From the sequence record MT884006.2: a stretch of DNA of 64,000 nucleotides; one strand, 5' to 3'. Position 1 is the stretch's first letter, and every line of letters starts with the position of its first letter. The position numbers were made by a program, and so were the translations under genes. This DNA comes from Escherichia phage vb_EcoM_bov9_1. This document shows positions 2,410 to 45,219 of this stretch, piece after piece. Under the pieces are notes generated by a model. It was not told where the DNA came from and searched no databases. It saw nothing but the letters and a program-made list of their open reading frames with translations.

Positions 2410-4034
<1,625 letters not shown>

Positions 4035-11884: not shown

Positions 11885-12565
11885 TTATTTTAATGTTACG
11901 AAAGAAGAATTGCGTGTTTCACGAATTAAAACTGATCCATCACGATTAATGTAATAAATTAAGCTAAATAAAGTTTGGTGTGCTGACGCGTGCTCAAAAC
12001 TTGTTGGGTGAGATTTCCAATCCGGAGTTTCAGCAATCCATTGATAAATCCACCAAGGAACAGTGCAGAATCCTGGATTTTTTCCAATCAACTGAAGATT
12101 CGGACTAAAGTTTTCCGGAAGAGTAAATACAGACGGCCTTTCAGATTCAATAATCTCAGCTACAGCCTGTTCGAATTTTTCTTCAACAAAAGGAGTATCT
12201 TCAATCAAAACATCGGTATTTTCAGGAATTTTATCCGTTTCTACTACTTCAATTTTAATGTCAGATTTAACCGGAGAATCAATCAGAAGTGCTGCTTCTG
12301 GATTGACTTCTTCATCGTCATATTTTAACCCCTCTGCAGCATCAGCAGCATCAATTAAGTCTTTAATAGATAACCCATCAGTCTCCGGCATAGGTTCACT
12401 AGCGAGCTTCTGGAGGGCTTCTTCAATATCAACAACGATATTATCAAAAGATTTATTCTTTTTGACCTTTATACCAAACTGTTCAGCATATTCAGCTAAT
12501 TTAGCTTTAGCTTCTTTATTATCATCAAGAGCCTTCAGCTCTGCAATATAATCTTTATCTATCAT
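11885..12565 (-). CDS. inh: Inh, inhibitor of prohead protease (226 aa)
   Basis: 226 aa as T4 Inh; position between hoc and uvsW. Confidence 0.7.
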   Translation of the reverse strand: MIDKDYIAELKALDDNKEAKAKLAEYAEQFGIKVKKNKSFDNIVVDIEEALQKLASEPMPETDGLSIKDLIDAADAAEGLKYDDEEVNPEAALLIDSPVKSDIKIEVVETDKIPENTDVLIEDTPFVEEKFEQAVAEIIESERPSVFTLPENFSPNLQLIGKNPGFCTVPWWIYQWIAETPDWKSHPTSFEHASAHQTLFSLIYYINRDGSVLIRETRNSSFVTLK

Positions 12566-39627: not shown

Positions 39628-40806
39628 TTAAAAGTATTTTTTAAAACTCATCATAACTTTATCATCAACATCATTATCAATCTGTGCAACAAGATAAGAT
39701 GACAGTTCTACTTCTTGTGGCGCGGATTGAACATTATCAGAATTAAGATATTCACGAATCCAAGGATATGGATGTTTAACCGGAGCATCGGTAATTGGGC
39801 ATGGAAGACCGCACTGTTTCATACGAGATACAGTTAAGTAATCAATAAAGCTCCACATGCTATTTGTATTTAATCCAGGAACATCGCCATCTTTAAATAA
39901 ATGAACTGCCCAATCTTTTTCTTGGCGGTTAACTTCCATGAAAATATCAACTGCTTCTTGTTCACACTCTTGAGCAATTTTAACCCATTCATCGCCATCA
40001 GTACCAGATTGAAGTTGACGAATAATATATTGGGTGCCTTTAAGGTGAAGCTGTTCATCGCGTGCAATGAACTTCATAATCTTGGCATTACCTTCCATGA
40101 TTTCCATGTTTTTATGGAAGTTAAAGGTACATGCGAAAGATACATAAAAACGAATAGCTTCCAATGCGTTGATTACATGCAAACAGAGGTAAAGAGATTT
40201 CATTAGCTCATGCTTCCAATATGTCTCATGCTCAATAGCATCTTCAATAACGTCTTCGTCTGCATTAATTTCTTTTTGGTATTCGATATCAGCTTTAGCG
40301 TTTTCCCAATAACGAGTTTTAATCAGAACATCATCATAATAACGTCCAATGGATTCAGCACGTTTCATAATAGCTTCATCTAATACAATTTCATCAAATA
40401 CCTTCGATGGATCAGTATAAAGATTTCGCATGATATGTGTATATGAACGGCTGTGAATAGTTTCACTAAAAGTCCACGTAGCAACCCATGTATCAAGGCT
40501 TGGGTCTGAAATTAATGACATAAGTACAGCAGACGGCGCACGACCCTGAATGCTATCCAAAAGTGATTGATACTTCAGGTTATTAGTAAAAATATTTTGC
40601 TGATACTGAGGAAGCTTATTAAACTGTGCAGCATCCATCATTAAGTTTACTTCTTCAGGCCGCCAGAAAAATGATAATTGCTTTTCGGTCAAATCTTCAA
40701 AAACTTTATGGCGTTGAATATCATAACGCGCAATACCAAGACCTGAACCAAAAAACATAGGTTCTTTTAAAACATCAACTGGATTTGTATTAAAAACTGT
40801 AGACAT
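39628..40806 (-). CDS. nrdB: Ribonucleotide reductase small subunit NrdB, uninterrupted (no intron)
   Basis: Continuous about 392 aa ORF from MSTVFNTNP; di-iron RNR small subunit composition; start overlaps HNH gene stop (TAATG). Confidence 0.9.
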   Translation of the reverse strand: MSTVFNTNPVDVLKEPMFFGSGLGIARYDIQRHKVFEDLTEKQLSFFWRPEEVNLMMDAAQFNKLPQYQQNIFTNNLKYQSLLDSIQGRAPSAVLMSLISDPSLDTWVATWTFSETIHSRSYTHIMRNLYTDPSKVFDEIVLDEAIMKRAESIGRYYDDVLIKTRYWENAKADIEYQKEINADEDVIEDAIEHETYWKHELMKSLYLCLHVINALEAIRFYVSFACTFNFHKNMEIMEGNAKIMKFIARDEQLHLKGTQYIIRQLQSGTDGDEWVKIAQECEQEAVDIFMEVNRQEKDWAVHLFKDGDVPGLNTNSMWSFIDYLTVSRMKQCGLPCPITDAPVKHPYPWIREYLNSDNVQSAPQEVELSSYLVAQIDNDVDDKVMMSFKKYF

Positions 40807-41537
40807 TAATTTTTCCTCTTTAAAATTCTGCCGTGTTTCCAACCTGGCGGTATAATATCATCTTTACCTATAAGCGTGCATTCACTTCCATTATTAATCC
40901 ATTTCTTACCACGAATTCCTTTATAATCTCTTGGTTTTATTTTGTCAAACTTTGCATCAAGTTGATATGCCCATCTAAATCCATAGGCATATTGAAATTT
41001 ACCCTCAGCACAATATTTGATATTTGACCCGTTTCCATTAACTGACCGGGACGCTTCCGCGATAGAGTGAAATGTTTCTATAAAATCCCCATCTAATGAG
41101 AATTTATGTATTTCGATAGATGGACATGCATACCTATTCACGTTTGATACATGTTGTTTAGTTTCGTTTTTATGATGCTTGCCTAACATTCCTCTAGGAT
41201 GAGGATTATTTTTCCAATATTTCTTAAAGAAATCAGAATTAGCTTTAGCAAATAATTTTCTGTGCAAGCTATACAATCTGTTATTAATTCTATTACCAGC
41301 TTTATCTGTTGCCATTAACGTTAACGCAGAGGCAAGCCCAAAATGGCCTTCATTTATCTTACATAGTAATAGATGCGCTATAAAATGTTCTCTAGCTGTT
41401 AATTCAACTAAATTTTCTTTATCATCAGAACCTCCCATGCATTTAGGGACTATATGATGTGTCTCTTTATATTCGGATAAAGGTTCCCGAGCCTGAGCTC
41501 GGGAAATTAGGTCATTATAGATTTTTTGATAATTCAT
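40806..41537 (-). CDS. mobE: HNH homing-endonuclease-like protein (243 aa), mobE-like by position
   Basis: N-terminal HNH motif HHIVPKCMGGSDDKENLVELTAREHFIAH; nested between nrdA and nrdB with 1-nt TAATG overlaps at both ends. Confidence 0.55.
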   Translation of the reverse strand: MNYQKIYNDLISRAQAREPLSEYKETHHIVPKCMGGSDDKENLVELTAREHFIAHLLLCKINEGHFGLASALTLMATDKAGNRINNRLYSLHRKLFAKANSDFFKKYWKNNPHPRGMLGKHHKNETKQHVSNVNRYACPSIEIHKFSLDGDFIETFHSIAEASRSVNGNGSNIKYCAEGKFQYAYGFRWAYQLDAKFDKIKPRDYKGIRGKKWINNGSECTLIGKDDIIPPGWKHGRILKRKN

Positions 41538-43801
41538 TACAATTTACACGCTGCACAATCGTCGGCTTTAGGAGTTTCTATTTCATAATCATCAGTACCA
41601 GAACCATCACGGGTATTATGATAATAGAAATTTTTAATGCCATAATACCATCCGTATAGCATGTCATCAATCATTATTGACATTGGAACCTTTCCTTTTG
41701 GAAAAATCTGCGGGTCATAGTATGTATTAGCTGAAGCTGATTGACATACCCATTTCAGCATAATAGCTACTTGCGTAAGATAAGGTTTATTACCTTTCTT
41801 AGCTAATTTCCATGTATAATCATAGAGGTCTATGTTATGCTCAATATTGGGCACGACTTGATTAAAGGAGCCCTCTTTTGATTCTTTAACAGAGACTGGT
41901 CCACGTGGAGGCTCGATACCGTTTGTACTGTTAGAAACTTGGGAAGATGACTCACATGGCATAAGTGCTGATAATGTGCTATTACGGATGCCAAAGAGCT
42001 TAAGGTCTTCCCGCAGCGACGACCAGTCACAAACGTATTTTGGAGCTGCGATTTGGTCAATCTTTTTATTGTACCAGTCGATAGGTAATTCGCCTCGAGA
42101 CCAACGAGTGTCTGAATAATATTCGCAAGGTCCTTTTTCTTTGGCGAGCTTAATGGATGCTTTAATGAGTCCATACTGCAATCTCTCAAATAGTTCATGT
42201 GTTAAATCGTTAGCATCTTCATAAGAAGCAAAATTACTTGCCAGCCAAGCTGCATAGTTAGTAACACCTACGCCAAGGTTTCGACGCTTTTTAGCTTTTT
42301 CTGCTTCAGGAACTGGATATCCTTGGTAGTCCAAAAGATTATCAAGAGCACGAACTTGGACTTCTGCCAATTCATTAATTTTATCTTGGTCTTGCCAATC
42401 GAAGTTATCTAACACAAATGCAGATAATGTACACAATCCAATTTCAGCATCAGGACTATTCACATCATTTGTTGGAATAGCAATTTCACAACACAAGTTA
42501 CTCTGACGAATAGGTGCCTTTTCACGAATAAATGGAGTATAGTTATTCGTATTATCAATGAACTGTACATAAATCCTTGCTGTTCCTGATCGTTCAGTCA
42601 TGAGCAATTCAAACAGTTCACGGGCTTTAATACGCTTTTTGCGAATATTAGGGTCTTTTTCTGCGGCTTCGTATAATTCACGGAAACGGTCTTGGTCTTT
42701 AAAATAAGAATAATAAAGCTCGCCACCCATTTCGTGTGGACTGAACAAAGTAATGTAGTCGTTCTTTCCAAAACGTTCCATCATTAGGTCATTCAGTTGA
42801 ACGCCATAATCCATATGACGGATACGGTTTTCTTCTACGCCTTTGTTATTTTTCAAAACGAGAAGATTTTCAACTTCCAAATGCCAAATAGGATAATAAG
42901 CAGTAGCAGCGCCGCCACGAATTCCACCCTGTGAGCATGATTTAACTGCAGTCTGAAAATGTTTCCAAAAAGGAATAACACCAGTATGGCGTACTTCACC
43001 TGTGCCAATCTTAGAACCTTCGGCACGAATCATACCAACGTTAATACCAATTCCAGCGCGTTTGGAGATATATTCAACAATTGAAGCAGAAGCCTTATTG
43101 ATAGACTTTAATGAATCACCTGCCTCAATAACAACGCATGAACTAAACTGCCGAGTTGGAGTACGGCAACCAGCCATAATAGGAGTTGGCAGTGAAATCT
43201 GTCGAGTAGATACTGCTTCATAAAAACGGATAACGTGTTTTAATCTATCAACAGGTTCATCTTGATGCAATGCCATTCCAATAGTCATAAATGCAAACTG
43301 TGGAGTTTCATAAATTTGACCAGTGGTTTTATCTTTAACTAGATATTTTTCTTTTAATTGCATCGCCCCGGAATAAGTAAATTCCATATCCCGCTCATGC
43401 TTAATTTTTGATTCTAAAAATGTAATTTCTTCGGCAGAATATTTTAACAACAATTCAGGGTCGTATTTACCTTCATTTACACAGTAAGAAATATGATCAA
43501 TAAATGAACGTGGTTCATACTGCCCATAAACATGCTTACGAAGAGCGAACATTAAACAGCGTGCAGCTACATATTGATAATCAGGCTCTTCAACTGAAAT
43601 AGAATTCGCAGCAGCCTTAATTACAATAGTTTGAATGTCATCAGTTGTCATTCCATCACGGAGATATGATTTAATATTTTCATATAATTCATAAGGATCT
43701 ACAGATGTTCCTTCAGCTGCCCAAGATAAAACTTTAATAATTTTTTGCGGGTCAAAGCTCTGAGAAACACCACTACTTTTGATAACATTAATTAATTGCA
43801 T
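41537..43801 (-). CDS. nrdA: Ribonucleotide reductase large subunit NrdA (754 aa)
   Basis: 754 aa; class Ia RNR alpha; C-terminal Cys pair. Confidence 0.95.
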   Translation of the reverse strand: MQLINVIKSSGVSQSFDPQKIIKVLSWAAEGTSVDPYELYENIKSYLRDGMTTDDIQTIVIKAAANSISVEEPDYQYVAARCLMFALRKHVYGQYEPRSFIDHISYCVNEGKYDPELLLKYSAEEITFLESKIKHERDMEFTYSGAMQLKEKYLVKDKTTGQIYETPQFAFMTIGMALHQDEPVDRLKHVIRFYEAVSTRQISLPTPIMAGCRTPTRQFSSCVVIEAGDSLKSINKASASIVEYISKRAGIGINVGMIRAEGSKIGTGEVRHTGVIPFWKHFQTAVKSCSQGGIRGGAATAYYPIWHLEVENLLVLKNNKGVEENRIRHMDYGVQLNDLMMERFGKNDYITLFSPHEMGGELYYSYFKDQDRFRELYEAAEKDPNIRKKRIKARELFELLMTERSGTARIYVQFIDNTNNYTPFIREKAPIRQSNLCCEIAIPTNDVNSPDAEIGLCTLSAFVLDNFDWQDQDKINELAEVQVRALDNLLDYQGYPVPEAEKAKKRRNLGVGVTNYAAWLASNFASYEDANDLTHELFERLQYGLIKASIKLAKEKGPCEYYSDTRWSRGELPIDWYNKKIDQIAAPKYVCDWSSLREDLKLFGIRNSTLSALMPCESSSQVSNSTNGIEPPRGPVSVKESKEGSFNQVVPNIEHNIDLYDYTWKLAKKGNKPYLTQVAIMLKWVCQSASANTYYDPQIFPKGKVPMSIMIDDMLYGWYYGIKNFYYHNTRDGSGTDDYEIETPKADDCAACKL

Positions 43802-44118
43802 AAGTCCTCAACTTGAAAATCGTCTTTAAACAATCGGTTAACTATATGAGCTATTATATCACCATGACACGGCTTTGGTTTACATGTGCATCCTAGCCTC
43901 ATTCCACGTAAAGGCTCTAAATGTGCTTTAGTTATTTCTCCGGATTTAATTCGACGTATAAAATCTTTTTTGAATAATTCAATGGCAGCCTCCCGGCTGC
44001 CAGCATCTTTACCGACGTAATTTCCCCAAAATGTACCACGGTGAATATTAACATCAAAGTCGGATTTATATTTATTCACTACCCGGCATAGACGGCCCGC
44101 GCGGTAATAGTTCGTCAT
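43792..44118 (-). CDS. Hypothetical Cys/His-motif protein, 108 aa (nrdA.1 position)
   Basis: Motif [12 protein letters not shown] near C-terminus; overlaps nrdA start by 10 nt. Confidence 0.5.
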
Positions 44119-44358: not shown

Positions 44359-45219
44359 TTACACCGCCATCTTTCCTTTCAAGACACCATGGGACTGATA
44401 ATCTTTGAGAACGAAATCTCGTGCTGTCATATATTCAGTTAACCAATACATTTGAGTTTCAGTATCGCATTGACTGAATCCATTAGGCCAATTAATACTA
44501 AGTTTGCATAGATCCATAGGAGTTCTATTTAATATCTCTTTGCATTGCTCAATATGGTTAGAATAAATGTGTGTATTACCACCCGAGAATACCAAATCGC
44601 CCGGAACTAGTTCACACATATCAGCAACAATATGCAAAAGAGCAGCATAACTCGCGATGTTAAATGGAAGACCGAGGAAAACATCTACCGAACGTTGATA
44701 CCATTGGAGGTCAAGGTATCCGTTACGCACATTAAACTGATAGAACATATGACAAGGAGGTAATGCCATCTGCTTGAGTTCAGCTGGATTCCATGCCGAC
44801 ACAATTTGACGCCTATCGTTGGGAAATGTTTTAATACGATTAACAACTTCTACAATTTGATCTACACCACCAAAATCACGCCACTGTTTTCCGTAAATTG
44901 GACCAAGTTCACCGCTATGATAACCTAAGTCTTTGGCCTGGTTTTCGTAGTTTTCATCCCAAATTGTTTTTCCTGCAATTAAAGATCCATGAGTACGTTG
45001 ACGTAAATCATTTACGTTAGTACTTCCTGATAAGAACCACAATAACTCAGAAATACATGCATTCCAGGCGAGCTTCTTAGTCGTTACTGCAGGAAAACCT
45101 TTAGTTAAATCCCAGCGTAATTTAGTACCGAACAAAGCAATTGTTCCTGTGCCTGTTCGGTCATCAGTTTCATAGCCATTTTCAAAAATGTCTTTAATTA
45201 AATCTTGGTATTGTTTCAT
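44359..45219 (-). CDS. td: Thymidylate synthase, uninterrupted (286 aa, no intron)
   Basis: 286 aa continuous ORF; TS active-site region PPCH; recognised as T4 Td exon-joined sequence. Confidence 0.95.
   Translation of the reverse strand: MKQYQDLIKDIFENGYETDDRTGTGTIALFGTKLRWDLTKGFPAVTTKKLAWNACISELLWFLSGSTNVNDLRQRTHGSLIAGKTIWDENYENQAKDLGYHSGELGPIYGKQWRDFGGVDQIVEVVNRIKTFPNDRRQIVSAWNPAELKQMALPPCHMFYQFNVRNGYLDLQWYQRSVDVFLGLPFNIASYAALLHIVADMCELVPGDLVFSGGNTHIYSNHIEQCKEILNRTPMDLCKLSINWPNGFSQCDTETQMYWLTEYMTARDFVLKDYQSHGVLKGKMAV

Follow-up and report, generated by a model that had tools for sequence, protein, structure and literature searches.

A probable free-standing homing endonuclease gene, mobE of the RB3 type, between nrdA and nrdB in Escherichia phage vb_EcoM_bov9_1

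The genome of Escherichia phage vb_EcoM_bov9_1 (sequence record MT884006.2) harbors an open reading frame (ORF) for an HNH endonuclease that is located between nrdA and nrdB, which raises the question of whether this gene is a mobile element that spreads by homing, a gene kept for the benefit of the phage or an inactive relic. The stretch of DNA analyzed here, referred to as the window, is a 64,000-nucleotide segment of a Tequatrovirus genome. An earlier analysis of the letters alone (the sequence-only reading) described the locus as a 243-residue HNH ORF with a 1-nt overlap at each end, and considered the gene to be a candidate for either an active mobile gene or a domesticated one. From the evidence discussed below, the ORF is most probably the RB3-type allele of mobE, a free-standing gene for an HNH homing endonuclease in T4-like phages, and it would home by the mechanism outlined below.

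The ORF (40806..41537, minus strand) starts with ATG and encodes 243 amino acids. Upstream of it is nrdA (41537..43801, minus strand), identified from its Pfam RNR large-subunit domains, and on its other side is nrdB (39628..40806, minus strand; 392 amino acids). The coordinates, and a TAATG read from the sequence at either junction, confirm the two overlaps. At the first junction (41535..41539, minus strand) the nrdA stop codon TAA (41537-41539) and the mobE start codon ATG (41535-41537) have base 41537 in common, and the sequence reads ...AAATTGTAATGAATTAT...; at the second (40804..40808, minus strand) the mobE stop codon TAA (40806-40808) and the nrdB start codon ATG (40804-40806) have base 40806 in common, and the sequence reads ...AAAAATTAATGTCTACA.... 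For nrdB, the ORF list extends the frame to an upstream TTG at 40842, but the identical GenBank record places the start codon at the ATG at 40806. The overlap of the nrdA stop with the mobE start, UAAUGA, has been published and is read as translational coupling (PMC2988022); this arrangement is also kept in Erwinia phage Cronus. The proposal that the ORF is translationally embedded in the nrd operon therefore holds on the side of nrdA, where the overlap is a published coupling feature. It does not extend to the side of nrdB, because this gene keeps a putative ribosome-binding site of its own, AAGAGGA (40814..40820, minus strand), within the 3' end of mobE, i.e., the overlap there does not imply coupling. 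Over its final ~18 nt, mobE can be aligned with the native sequence that immediately precedes the nrdB ATG of mobE-less phages (AAGTGGAAAATTTATG vs AAGAGGAAAAATTAATG).

The whole window, the ORF included, is 100% identical to Escherichia phage vb_EcoM_bov10K1 (MT884007.2), where the ORF is annotated as "homing endonuclease", and at the nucleotide level the ORF is 98.2% identical, over 732/732 nt, to the RB3 gene annotated as mobE. Because the ORF has 795 homologues in the databases and matches PHROG 655 "homing endonuclease" (E = 2.6e-57), to which T4 MobE also belongs, it is not a chance reading frame. The comparison with T4 MobE, suggested as a check in the sequence-only reading, identified the ORF as mobE and limited the likeness to the T4 protein to residues 1-57. 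The anatomy agrees with that published for mobE, i.e., a UAAUGA overlap, a hairpin identical to the T4 terminator and no upstream Shine-Dalgarno sequence. The ORF is thus already known: it is deposited and annotated, and the overlap, the internal hairpin terminator and the homing of mobE are all published from work on T4.

The HNH nuclease module, residues 1-57 (41367..41537, minus strand), is the sole part in common with T4 MobE in alignments of both DNA and protein. The canonical HNH motif recognized in the sequence-only reading is intact at residues 27-55 (HHIVPKCMGGSDDKENLVELTAREHFIAH; 41373..41459, minus strand), as found from a motif scan, a Pfam match and residue conservation; H27, H28, N42, H51 and H55, which are presumed to be catalytic, are invariant in a family alignment of 32 sequences. 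The score of the Pfam HNH match (PF01844; 19.4 bits, E = 0.0012) is just under the gathering cut-off of 21.4. This low score could reflect an ORF that is an inactive relic, which no longer cuts DNA and persists since its deletion would harm expression of nrdB. A defunct homing endonuclease, T4 I-TevIII, is known nearby, and even for T4 MobE nuclease activity was never obtained in vitro with the purified protein (PMC2790892). However, the ORF is full-length and retains all of the conserved HNH residues, dN/dS stays well below 1 throughout the gene, also in the DNA-binding part, and the within-species presence and absence of the gene together with its divergent flank (see below) suggest recent gain or loss, which makes a relic very improbable.

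The RB3-type C-terminal region (residues 58-243) contains a predicted NUMOD1 DNA-binding motif at residues 147-177 (41007..41099, minus strand; Pfam PF07453, 27 bits vs a gathering cut-off of 22.8), and NUMOD1 is precomputed for most of the full-length homologues as well. In an AlphaFold model of the protein, the low pTM (0.48) beside a high pLDDT (88.8) would fit separate modules on linkers. The dN/dS values are 0.07-0.17 in both domains, in close as well as distant comparisons, i.e., mobE is under purifying selection, its DNA-binding part included.

Expression of mobE is presumably linked to that of nrdA. The sequence upstream of the mobE ATG contains no Shine-Dalgarno sequence of the gene's own, and nrdA transcripts and translation probably drive mobE in this phage; co-transcription with nrdA was shown in T4 only (PMC2790892). 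A hairpin located ~30 nt inside the ORF (41484..41505, minus strand) is composed of a 9-bp stem and a UCAG loop, with a short tract rich in U after it, and has a folding energy of -16.7 kcal/mol (z = -2.85). Its sequence is identical to that of the T4 mobE hairpin mapped as a weak intrinsic terminator, for which termination was measured in T4 only (PMC2790892). A simple terminator scan does not call the hairpin because the U tract is short, in agreement with the published description of a "weak terminator" (PMC2790892). At the opposite end of the gene, in the place equivalent to that of the T4 nrdB middle promoter (PMC2790892), a pattern match revealed a weak candidate promoter for nrdB, GCTTAT-12 nt-TATTAT (40852..40875, minus strand), inside the 3' end of mobE. 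This pattern is barely above chance (75 found vs 59 expected) and the site may serve as a weak lead; neither a generic sigma-70 scan nor a loose pattern resembling the MotA box was informative about an nrdB middle promoter in this part of mobE.

The sequence-only reading also described nrdB and td as continuous genes, which is confirmed by uninterrupted Pfam matches, to most of the model length for nrdB and to model positions 1-266 of 266 for td (44359..45219, minus strand; 286 amino acids), and by a search against Rfam, which found no group I intron in the whole 64-kb window. A hidden intron, or an intron-encoded origin of the ORF, was considered and rejected: there is no Rfam match, the reading frames of nrdA, nrdB and td are unbroken, and the ORF itself is located between genes. 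The further idea that introns are the usual neighbors of such a gene, and that their absence is noteworthy, is not supported; an intronless nrdB and td represent the majority state among T4-like phages. Among T4-like records, ~687 match the nrdA/nrdB flanks, while 129 match an nrdB intron/I-TevIII query and 216 the I-TevI ORF of the td intron. Every combination is found: RB3 carries mobE together with both the td intron (I-TevI) and an nrdB intron with a full-length I-TevIII, whereas the window carries mobE and neither intron; TadeuszReichstein contains the nrdB intron but is without mobE, and T2 lacks mobE as well as any interruption of nrdB. The mobE gene is independent of an intron. In T4, the defective nrdB intron depends on mobE (PMC2790892). 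No other homing endonuclease is annotated in the window, where a motif scan found only mobE (HNH) and denA (GIY-YIG). A 226-residue ORF at 11885-12565, considered as a candidate for segE, has no Pfam match, and segE appears to be absent. This ORF is probably inh, judging from its length and from its position relative to the T4 map.

The RB3-type allele is found in ~57 of the ~687 T4-like records (~8%) and the C-terminal part of the T4 mobE region in ~71, and, in an even-step sample of the ranking, most of the records listed have an empty spacer of ~51 nt. Since about 80% of close relatives do without mobE, the gene is dispensable. These relatives include NBEco003, a phage of the same species as the window (Tequatrovirus nbeco) with otherwise similar nrd genes, and IsaacDaniel/ime09 likewise represents one species with and without mobE. 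Insertion boundaries are alike in 10/11 carriers sampled, JoYop being different at the 3' end. Homologues with 48-66% amino-acid identity are located at the nrdA/nrdB junction of Salmonella S16-like phages, Citrobacter CF1, Erwinia Cronus and Vibrio PVA8. A useful gene that is retained would also be expected to stay at a single locus for long across genera and to be under strong purifying selection. When nrdA is compared with that of NBEco003, the 200 nt adjacent to mobE contain 29 mismatches and the next two 200-nt blocks 3 and 1. The 29-mismatch block looks like a co-conversion tract. The block is not unique evidence, because T-even genomes are generally mosaic and the same comparison contains divergent blocks elsewhere, away from mobE.

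The patchy distribution, the presence and absence within one species and the purifying selection fit the first proposal of the sequence-only reading, that of an active mobile gene. If mobE were instead domesticated, it would be kept for a benefit to the phage, either by tuning of nrdA:nrdB expression via the terminator and the nrdB start signals or by exclusion of competitors. Such a role would be consistent with the dN/dS of 0.07-0.17, with the single slot occupied across several Straboviridae genera and with the nrdB ribosome-binding site, possibly also a promoter, inside the 3' end of mobE, a location that has been argued to select against deletion (PMC2790892). However, the gene is missing in most close relatives, the same-species phage included, decayed copies are found (STML-198 is frameshifted and JoYop altered at the 3' end), and purifying selection is equally expected of a homing gene that is re-selected through transmission. 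We therefore consider domestication unlikely.

For homing of mobE, we propose the following sequence of events. Transcripts of the gene would originate at the promoters upstream of nrdA, their translation would re-initiate at UAAUG, and the weak hairpin terminator just inside the ORF would hold the mobE transcript low; both steps have been shown in T4 and would operate similarly here. The HNH module (residues 1-57) would nick or cut DNA, and the NUMOD1-type part (residues 58-243) would recognize the site. In a mixed infection of a carrier and a mobE-less relative, the enzyme would damage the empty nrdA-nrdB region of the relative, and recombination repair would copy mobE and a short flank into it, leading to excess inheritance and spread. 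All these steps we infer from homology, anatomy and the population pattern; homing and nicking, i.e., HNH-dependent biased inheritance and a strand-specific nick within the nrdB of the recipient, have been shown for T4 MobE only (PMC2790892).

The nick by T4 MobE is located in nrdB nt 122-126 (PMC2790892). In the window, the counterpart found by alignment (40681..40685, minus strand) has the same five bases as in mobE-less T2, and within nrdB nt 114-131 only 2 positions are different between the window and T2. Variation at the junction was compared in a small sample of 25 loci, i.e., 11 RB3-type carriers, 2 T4-family carriers and 12 empty-site phages, to which IMG/VR contributed four close mobE-less relatives and one carrier. 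In this sample, the first 300 nt of nrdB contain no position that tells RB3-type carriers apart from empty-site phages, and 5/11 of these carriers (Sf23, ph0021, G28, SF2-1 and SH_GT) have the T2 base wherever nrdB nt 101-150 vary among the phages sampled. In T4 and slur02, the carriers of the other allele family, nrdB is strongly diverged from about nt 39 to 141, whereas RB3-type carriers are without such divergence. Compared with what characterizes T4-type specificity, the window has a different C-terminal part and no diverged nrdB nt 114-131, a change that has been proposed to provide self-protection. On the opposite side of the gene, the last 27 nt of nrdA (41537..41563, minus strand) form a haplotype that is fully linked to mobE in the sample: positions -27, -24, -17, -14, -12, -3 and -1 separate 11/11 RB3-type carriers from 12/12 empty-site phages, and the NrdA C-terminus is ...DDCAACKL in the window vs ...EDCSSCKL in mobE-less T2. 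The linked haplotype is partly common to T4-type carriers and may be ancestral cassette baggage rather than a destroyed target.

Because the DNA-binding part differs from that of T4 and the nrdB nick site is without protective changes, we propose that the target of the RB3-type allele is likelier to be the 3' end of nrdA together with the ~50-nt spacer found in empty sites than the T4 nick site, a preference that we would hold at roughly even chances. A target at the nrdA end and spacer would be destroyed by the mobE insertion itself. Alternatively, the RB3-type allele may have the T4 MobE target in nrdB, such that carriers would either cut and repair their own DNA or be protected by single downstream substitutions. 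The HNH module is nearly identical to that of T4, which would agree with a common target. Self-cutting has a precedent that we count in the same direction; the homing endonucleases SegH and Hef reportedly cut their own genomes too (Sandegren, 2005). Furthermore, a conserved stretch coding for FFWRPEE was proposed as the DNA-binding recognition site of T4 MobE (PMC2790892), and this stretch is changed in the window and in RB3 at nt 147 (CGT to CGG or CGC), in RB3 also at nt 138 and 150. However, the DNA-binding part, which is expected to set most of the specificity, is of the NUMOD1 type vs NUMOD3 and a zinc finger in the T4 family, and Sf23, ph0021, G28, SF2-1 and SH_GT carry the allele with T2 bases throughout nrdB nt 101-150, including nt 147. 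A target in common with T4 MobE is therefore conceivable, but we regard it as doubtful.

A broader interpretation, which we offer tentatively and do not favor strongly, is that two mobE allele families compete at the nrdA/nrdB junction, with a near-identical 5' block, unrelated DNA-binding parts and, for the RB3 type, a target of its own, and that domains are swapped as a result of homing. The 5' block common to both families is composed of the last 17 nt of nrdA and the 171-nt HNH module. If the two-family interpretation is correct, the target of the RB3-type allele would probably be the nrdA 3' end and the empty-site spacer rather than nrdB nt 122-126, and most RB3-type carriers, with their T2-like nrdB nick site, would be open to attack by a T4-type MobE. 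A T4-type allele could then replace just the 3' half of mobE, with the HNH-coding block used as the upstream homology arm. Should the alleles differ in target and displace each other, the junction would be a natural system for changes in specificity by module exchange, and it would also illustrate how homing endonucleases shape recombination boundaries in phages. The finding in itself is minor: the selfish gene is textbook knowledge for T-even phages, and the genome that contains it is already deposited and annotated. The comparison between alleles is of modest value: T4 MobE is one allele, with a split ORF, while the full-length form described here is more widespread and has a different DNA-binding part.

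The closest known system is RB3 mobE (KM606994 RB3_226; AY262130), which, like the gene in the window, encodes 243 amino acids between nrdA and nrdB with TAATG at both ends. The two proteins are 98.4% identical (tblastn), with four amino-acid differences, and identical or near-identical genes are found in RB5, RB6, RB7, RB9, RB10, Sf23, G28 and others. Sandegren, Nord and Sjöberg are said to have been the first to sequence RB3 mobE, in 2005, and may already describe the difference between the alleles.

T4 MobE (141 aa, AAD42600) is the only experimentally characterized mobE product (Wilson & Edgell 2009, PMC2790892). It shares with the window the nrdA/nrdB locus, the UAAUGA overlap with nrdA and, over the final 17 nt of nrdA, the linked haplotype. 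The DNA of the two ORFs differs little up to ~nt 171, a stretch that includes the HNH motif and the hairpin, and is unalignable beyond; the protein alignment agrees in that the T4 protein is unrelated to that of the window after His55, with no alignment past residue 57. Furthermore, the reading frame in T4 is divided between mobE (141 aa) and nrdB.1 (83 aa), whereas the window has a single 243-residue ORF with a NUMOD1-type C-terminus. The intact form of the T4 allele family, found in slur02, has NUMOD3 repeats and a C-terminal zinc finger. Its mobE overlaps nrdB by 4 nt (ATGA), as does nrdB.1 in T4, compared with 1 nt in the window.

An N-terminal HNH module is common to all Mob proteins (PMC2790892). 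T4 MobB, which is encoded at a different locus (the alpha-gt region), displays a weak likeness to the C-terminal part of the window protein (28.8% over ~124 aa, E = 5e-9), and some homologues of the window ORF are annotated as "MobB-like". Among solved structures, a PDB sequence search for a close relative gave only a marginal match, to the HNH region of a group II intron maturase. The only near-significant match in the fold search was I-HmuI (PDB 1u3e; Foldseek probability 0.98), the top PDB match of the AlphaFold model, in which the NUMOD1-containing part is confidently predicted. The sequence identity to I-HmuI is ~10% and the overall superposition is poor (rmsd 12.9 Å), as expected because multi-module proteins are flexible. 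I-HmuI, a nicking HNH homing endonuclease of Bacillus phage SPO1, is intron-encoded, whereas mobE is free-standing; in both, an HNH nuclease module is joined to DNA-binding modules that include a helix-turn-helix.

The window is part of a Tequatrovirus (T4-like) genome in which strong Pfam matches identify nrdA, nrdB and td, and where an open reading frame (ORF) of 243 aa with an ATG start (40806-41537, minus strand) is found between nrdA and nrdB. Across nrdA, the ORF and nrdB, the sequence is 100% identical to that of Escherichia phage vb_EcoM_bov10K1 (MT884007.2), onto which the window coordinates map directly and in which the ORF is annotated as "homing endonuclease". Pfam places NUMOD1 above threshold and HNH slightly below it; the HNH motif, HHIVPKCMGGSDDKENLVELTAREHFIAH, is located at aa 27-55 (ORF listing, motif scan), and an alignment of 32 family members shows no variation at residues H27, H28, N42, H51 or H55. 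The ORF is mobE, i.e., a feature that is already known, named and annotated. The sequence-only reading had described a free-standing homing endonuclease, which is borne out by 98.2% identity over 732/732 nt to the gene annotated as mobE in RB3, RB5, RB6, RB7, RB9 and RB10 and by a match to PHROG 655 "homing endonuclease" (E = 2.6e-57); the details given there, i.e., position, length, HNH motif, both 1-nt overlaps and intronless nrdB and td, are all confirmed (ORF listing, Pfam, Rfam). No further homing endonucleases were found in the window by annotation or motif scan, and denA is the sole carrier of a GIY-YIG motif in the latter.

At the 5' end of the ORF (minus strand, ...AAATTGTAATGAATTAT...) base 41537 is common to the nrdA stop and the ORF start, and at the 3' end (...AAAAATTAATGTCTACA...) base 40806 is common to the ORF stop and the nrdB start. 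Over its final ~18 nt the ORF can be aligned with the native stretch directly upstream of the nrdB ATG at the empty site, i.e., the junction without mobE (AAGAGGAAAAATTAATG vs AAGTGGAAAATTTATG), which indicates that the ORF runs on into the nrdB start region and explains the second TAATG. Because nrdB retains a good predicted ribosome-binding site, AAGAGGA (40814-40820), it need not rely on translational coupling; a candidate nrdB promoter at 40852-40875 is a pattern match without statistical support. RNA folding predicts a hairpin within mobE (9-bp stem, UCAG loop, -16.7 kcal/mol, z = -2.85) whose sequence is identical in an alignment to that of the T4 mobE hairpin. Further upstream, a 108-aa ORF (43792-44118, minus strand; Pfam DUF4326, E = 5.5e-22), the counterpart of T4 nrdA.1, shares 10 nt with the start of nrdA and is left unannotated in the identical record MT884007.2.

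As published, mobE is a free-standing HNH homing endonuclease gene between nrdA and nrdB of T4 and several relatives, and in T4 and the RB phages related to it, insertion between the class Ia ribonucleotide reductase genes is common (PMC3653736). The T4 gene lacks its own promoter and is co-transcribed with nrdA, 30-50% of the transcripts ending at a hairpin just inside the mobE ORF; in T4 x T2 crosses mobE is inherited at ~2-fold over input in a manner that requires the HNH motif, and it mobilises a defective T4 nrdB intron in trans (Wilson & Edgell, PMC2790892). The UAAUGA in which the nrdA stop and mobE start overlap has been explicitly described and read as translational coupling (for review, see PMC2988022). 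The features picked out from the sequence are thus rediscoveries of published features of mobE.

Both nrdB and td are uninterrupted in the window, and a search of the 64 kb against Rfam gives no group I intron or other curated RNA. In the phage collection, an nrdB intron/I-TevIII query has 129 matching records and the td-intron I-TevI ORF has 216, far fewer than the ~687 that match the nrdA/nrdB flanks, so that the intronless state is that of the majority of T4-like records. Phages are found with mobE and both introns (RB3), with mobE and without introns (the window), with an nrdB intron and without mobE (TadeuszReichstein), and without mobE and with an uninterrupted nrdB (T2). The sequence-only interpretation accordingly stands as to the kind of gene, a free-standing and probably active homing endonuclease, but not in treating the absence of introns as special.

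Counted as database records, which include some GenBank/RefSeq duplicates, the allele of the window (RB3-type) is complete in 56-57 and the C-terminal part of the T4 mobE region is matched in ~71; of the records listed, which sample the ranking at even steps, most have an empty ~51-nt spacer. Presence in all relatives, which had been set against mobility, is not observed: mobE is polymorphic even within Tequatrovirus nbeco, the species of the window phage, where NBEco003 has an empty site. Similarly, Hafnia phage IsaacDaniel (with mobE) and ime09 (without) are one species, and these two pairs would be convenient natural donors and recipients for homing crosses. Full-length homologues with 48-66% aa identity occupy the same junction in Salmonella S16-like phages, Citrobacter CF1, Erwinia Cronus, where the TAATGA overlap is retained, and Vibrio PVA8. 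In close and distant pairs, dN/dS (Nei-Gojobori) is 0.07-0.17 for the whole ORF and 0 to 0.16 in both domains. A decayed copy is found in Salmonella phage STML-198 (locus ~1775-2215; frameshift after ~aa 135), and in Escherichia phage JoYop (locus 801-1547) an indel near the 3' end yields an ORF of 248 aa whose overlap with nrdB is 17 nt; JoYop nrdB begins with the empty-site codon AGC. From these comparisons, mobE of the window is probably a live mobile element encoding an active homing endonuclease. Matches are also found in two records labelled as Pseudomonas phages, PsgM02F (OR584013.1; 97.5% over the mobE ORF) and vB_PSGBLB0006 (PV654520.1; 96.2% over the 1.7-kb nrdA-mobE-nrdB junction), which are so near to T4-like coliphages that their host labels look doubtful.

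In a comparison with NBEco003, 29 mismatches fall in the 200 nt of nrdA next to mobE and 3 and 1 in the two 200-nt blocks beyond, which would fit co-conversion of this flank; T-even genomes are, however, mosaics, and this comparison has further divergent blocks away from mobE. One of these, at 40007-40406 (minus strand; nrdB nt 401-800), is very divergent: nt 401-600 differ by 54 mismatches and 18 gap columns and nt 601-800 by 21 mismatches, while the next 800 nt show 0-4 mismatches per 200 nt. Because this block overlaps the insertion site of the RB3 nrdB intron (the I-TevIII ORF starts at ~nrdB nt 820), it may be the trace of an intron that once homed there or was lost.

The probable site of cleavage by the RB3-type enzyme was approached through polymorphisms in a small sample that comprised 11 RB3-type carriers, 12 empty-site phages and 2 T4-family carriers. 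Within the final 27 nt of nrdA, 7 positions distinguish all 11 RB3-type carriers from all 12 empty-site phages, and 5 of the 7 are common to the T4-family carriers; the initial 300 nt of nrdB contain no position that separates the same 11 from the same 12. Five RB3-type carriers (SH_GT, Sf23, G28, ph0021 and SF2-1) have T2 bases over nrdB nt 101-150, including the T4 MobE nick site. In T4 and slur02, nrdB diverges strongly from ~nt 39 to 141, in line with the published proposal that polymorphism there protects the T4 allele's own genome. Either RB3-type carriers tolerate self-cutting or the target lies elsewhere than the T4 nick site, most simply in the nrdA 3' end and the spacer replaced by the insertion; the chances of the latter are about even. 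The sample is small, and the linked haplotype in nrdA could have been inherited with the ancestral cassette. The same haplotype alters residues beside and between the two C-terminal NrdA cysteines (41537-41563, minus strand; ...DDCAACKL vs ...EDCSSCKL in T2, which lacks mobE). In class Ia reductases a redox-active cysteine pair is located in the NrdA tail, and homing may thus carry a protein-level variant of NrdA along.

A comparison with T4 MobE, as proposed in the sequence-only reading, places both proteins in PHROG 655, and the genes show few differences over the first ~171 nt, i.e., the HNH module up to just past His55, but share no alignable sequence beyond that point. T4 mobE is annotated (AF158101.6; locus 3001-3701) as 141 aa followed by a separate nrdB.1 of 83 aa in another frame; their products match consecutive parts of PHROG 655, and together the two are the counterpart of one intact 213-aa ORF in slur02 (locus 801-1442) and LF82-8, composed of HNH, NUMOD3 repeats and a C-terminal zinc finger. 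T4 mobE is a split gene, yet genetically active in homing. The C-terminal part of the window protein is instead of NUMOD1 type and weakly similar to T4 MobB. The AlphaFold model of the protein is confident (pLDDT 88.8) with a low pTM (0.48), as expected for modules joined by flexible linkers, and I-HmuI, a nicking homing endonuclease, is the best match in the PDB (probability 0.98), with poor global superposition. As judged from sequence, the RB3-type allele of the window differs from the experimentally studied T4 allele in its DNA-binding module.
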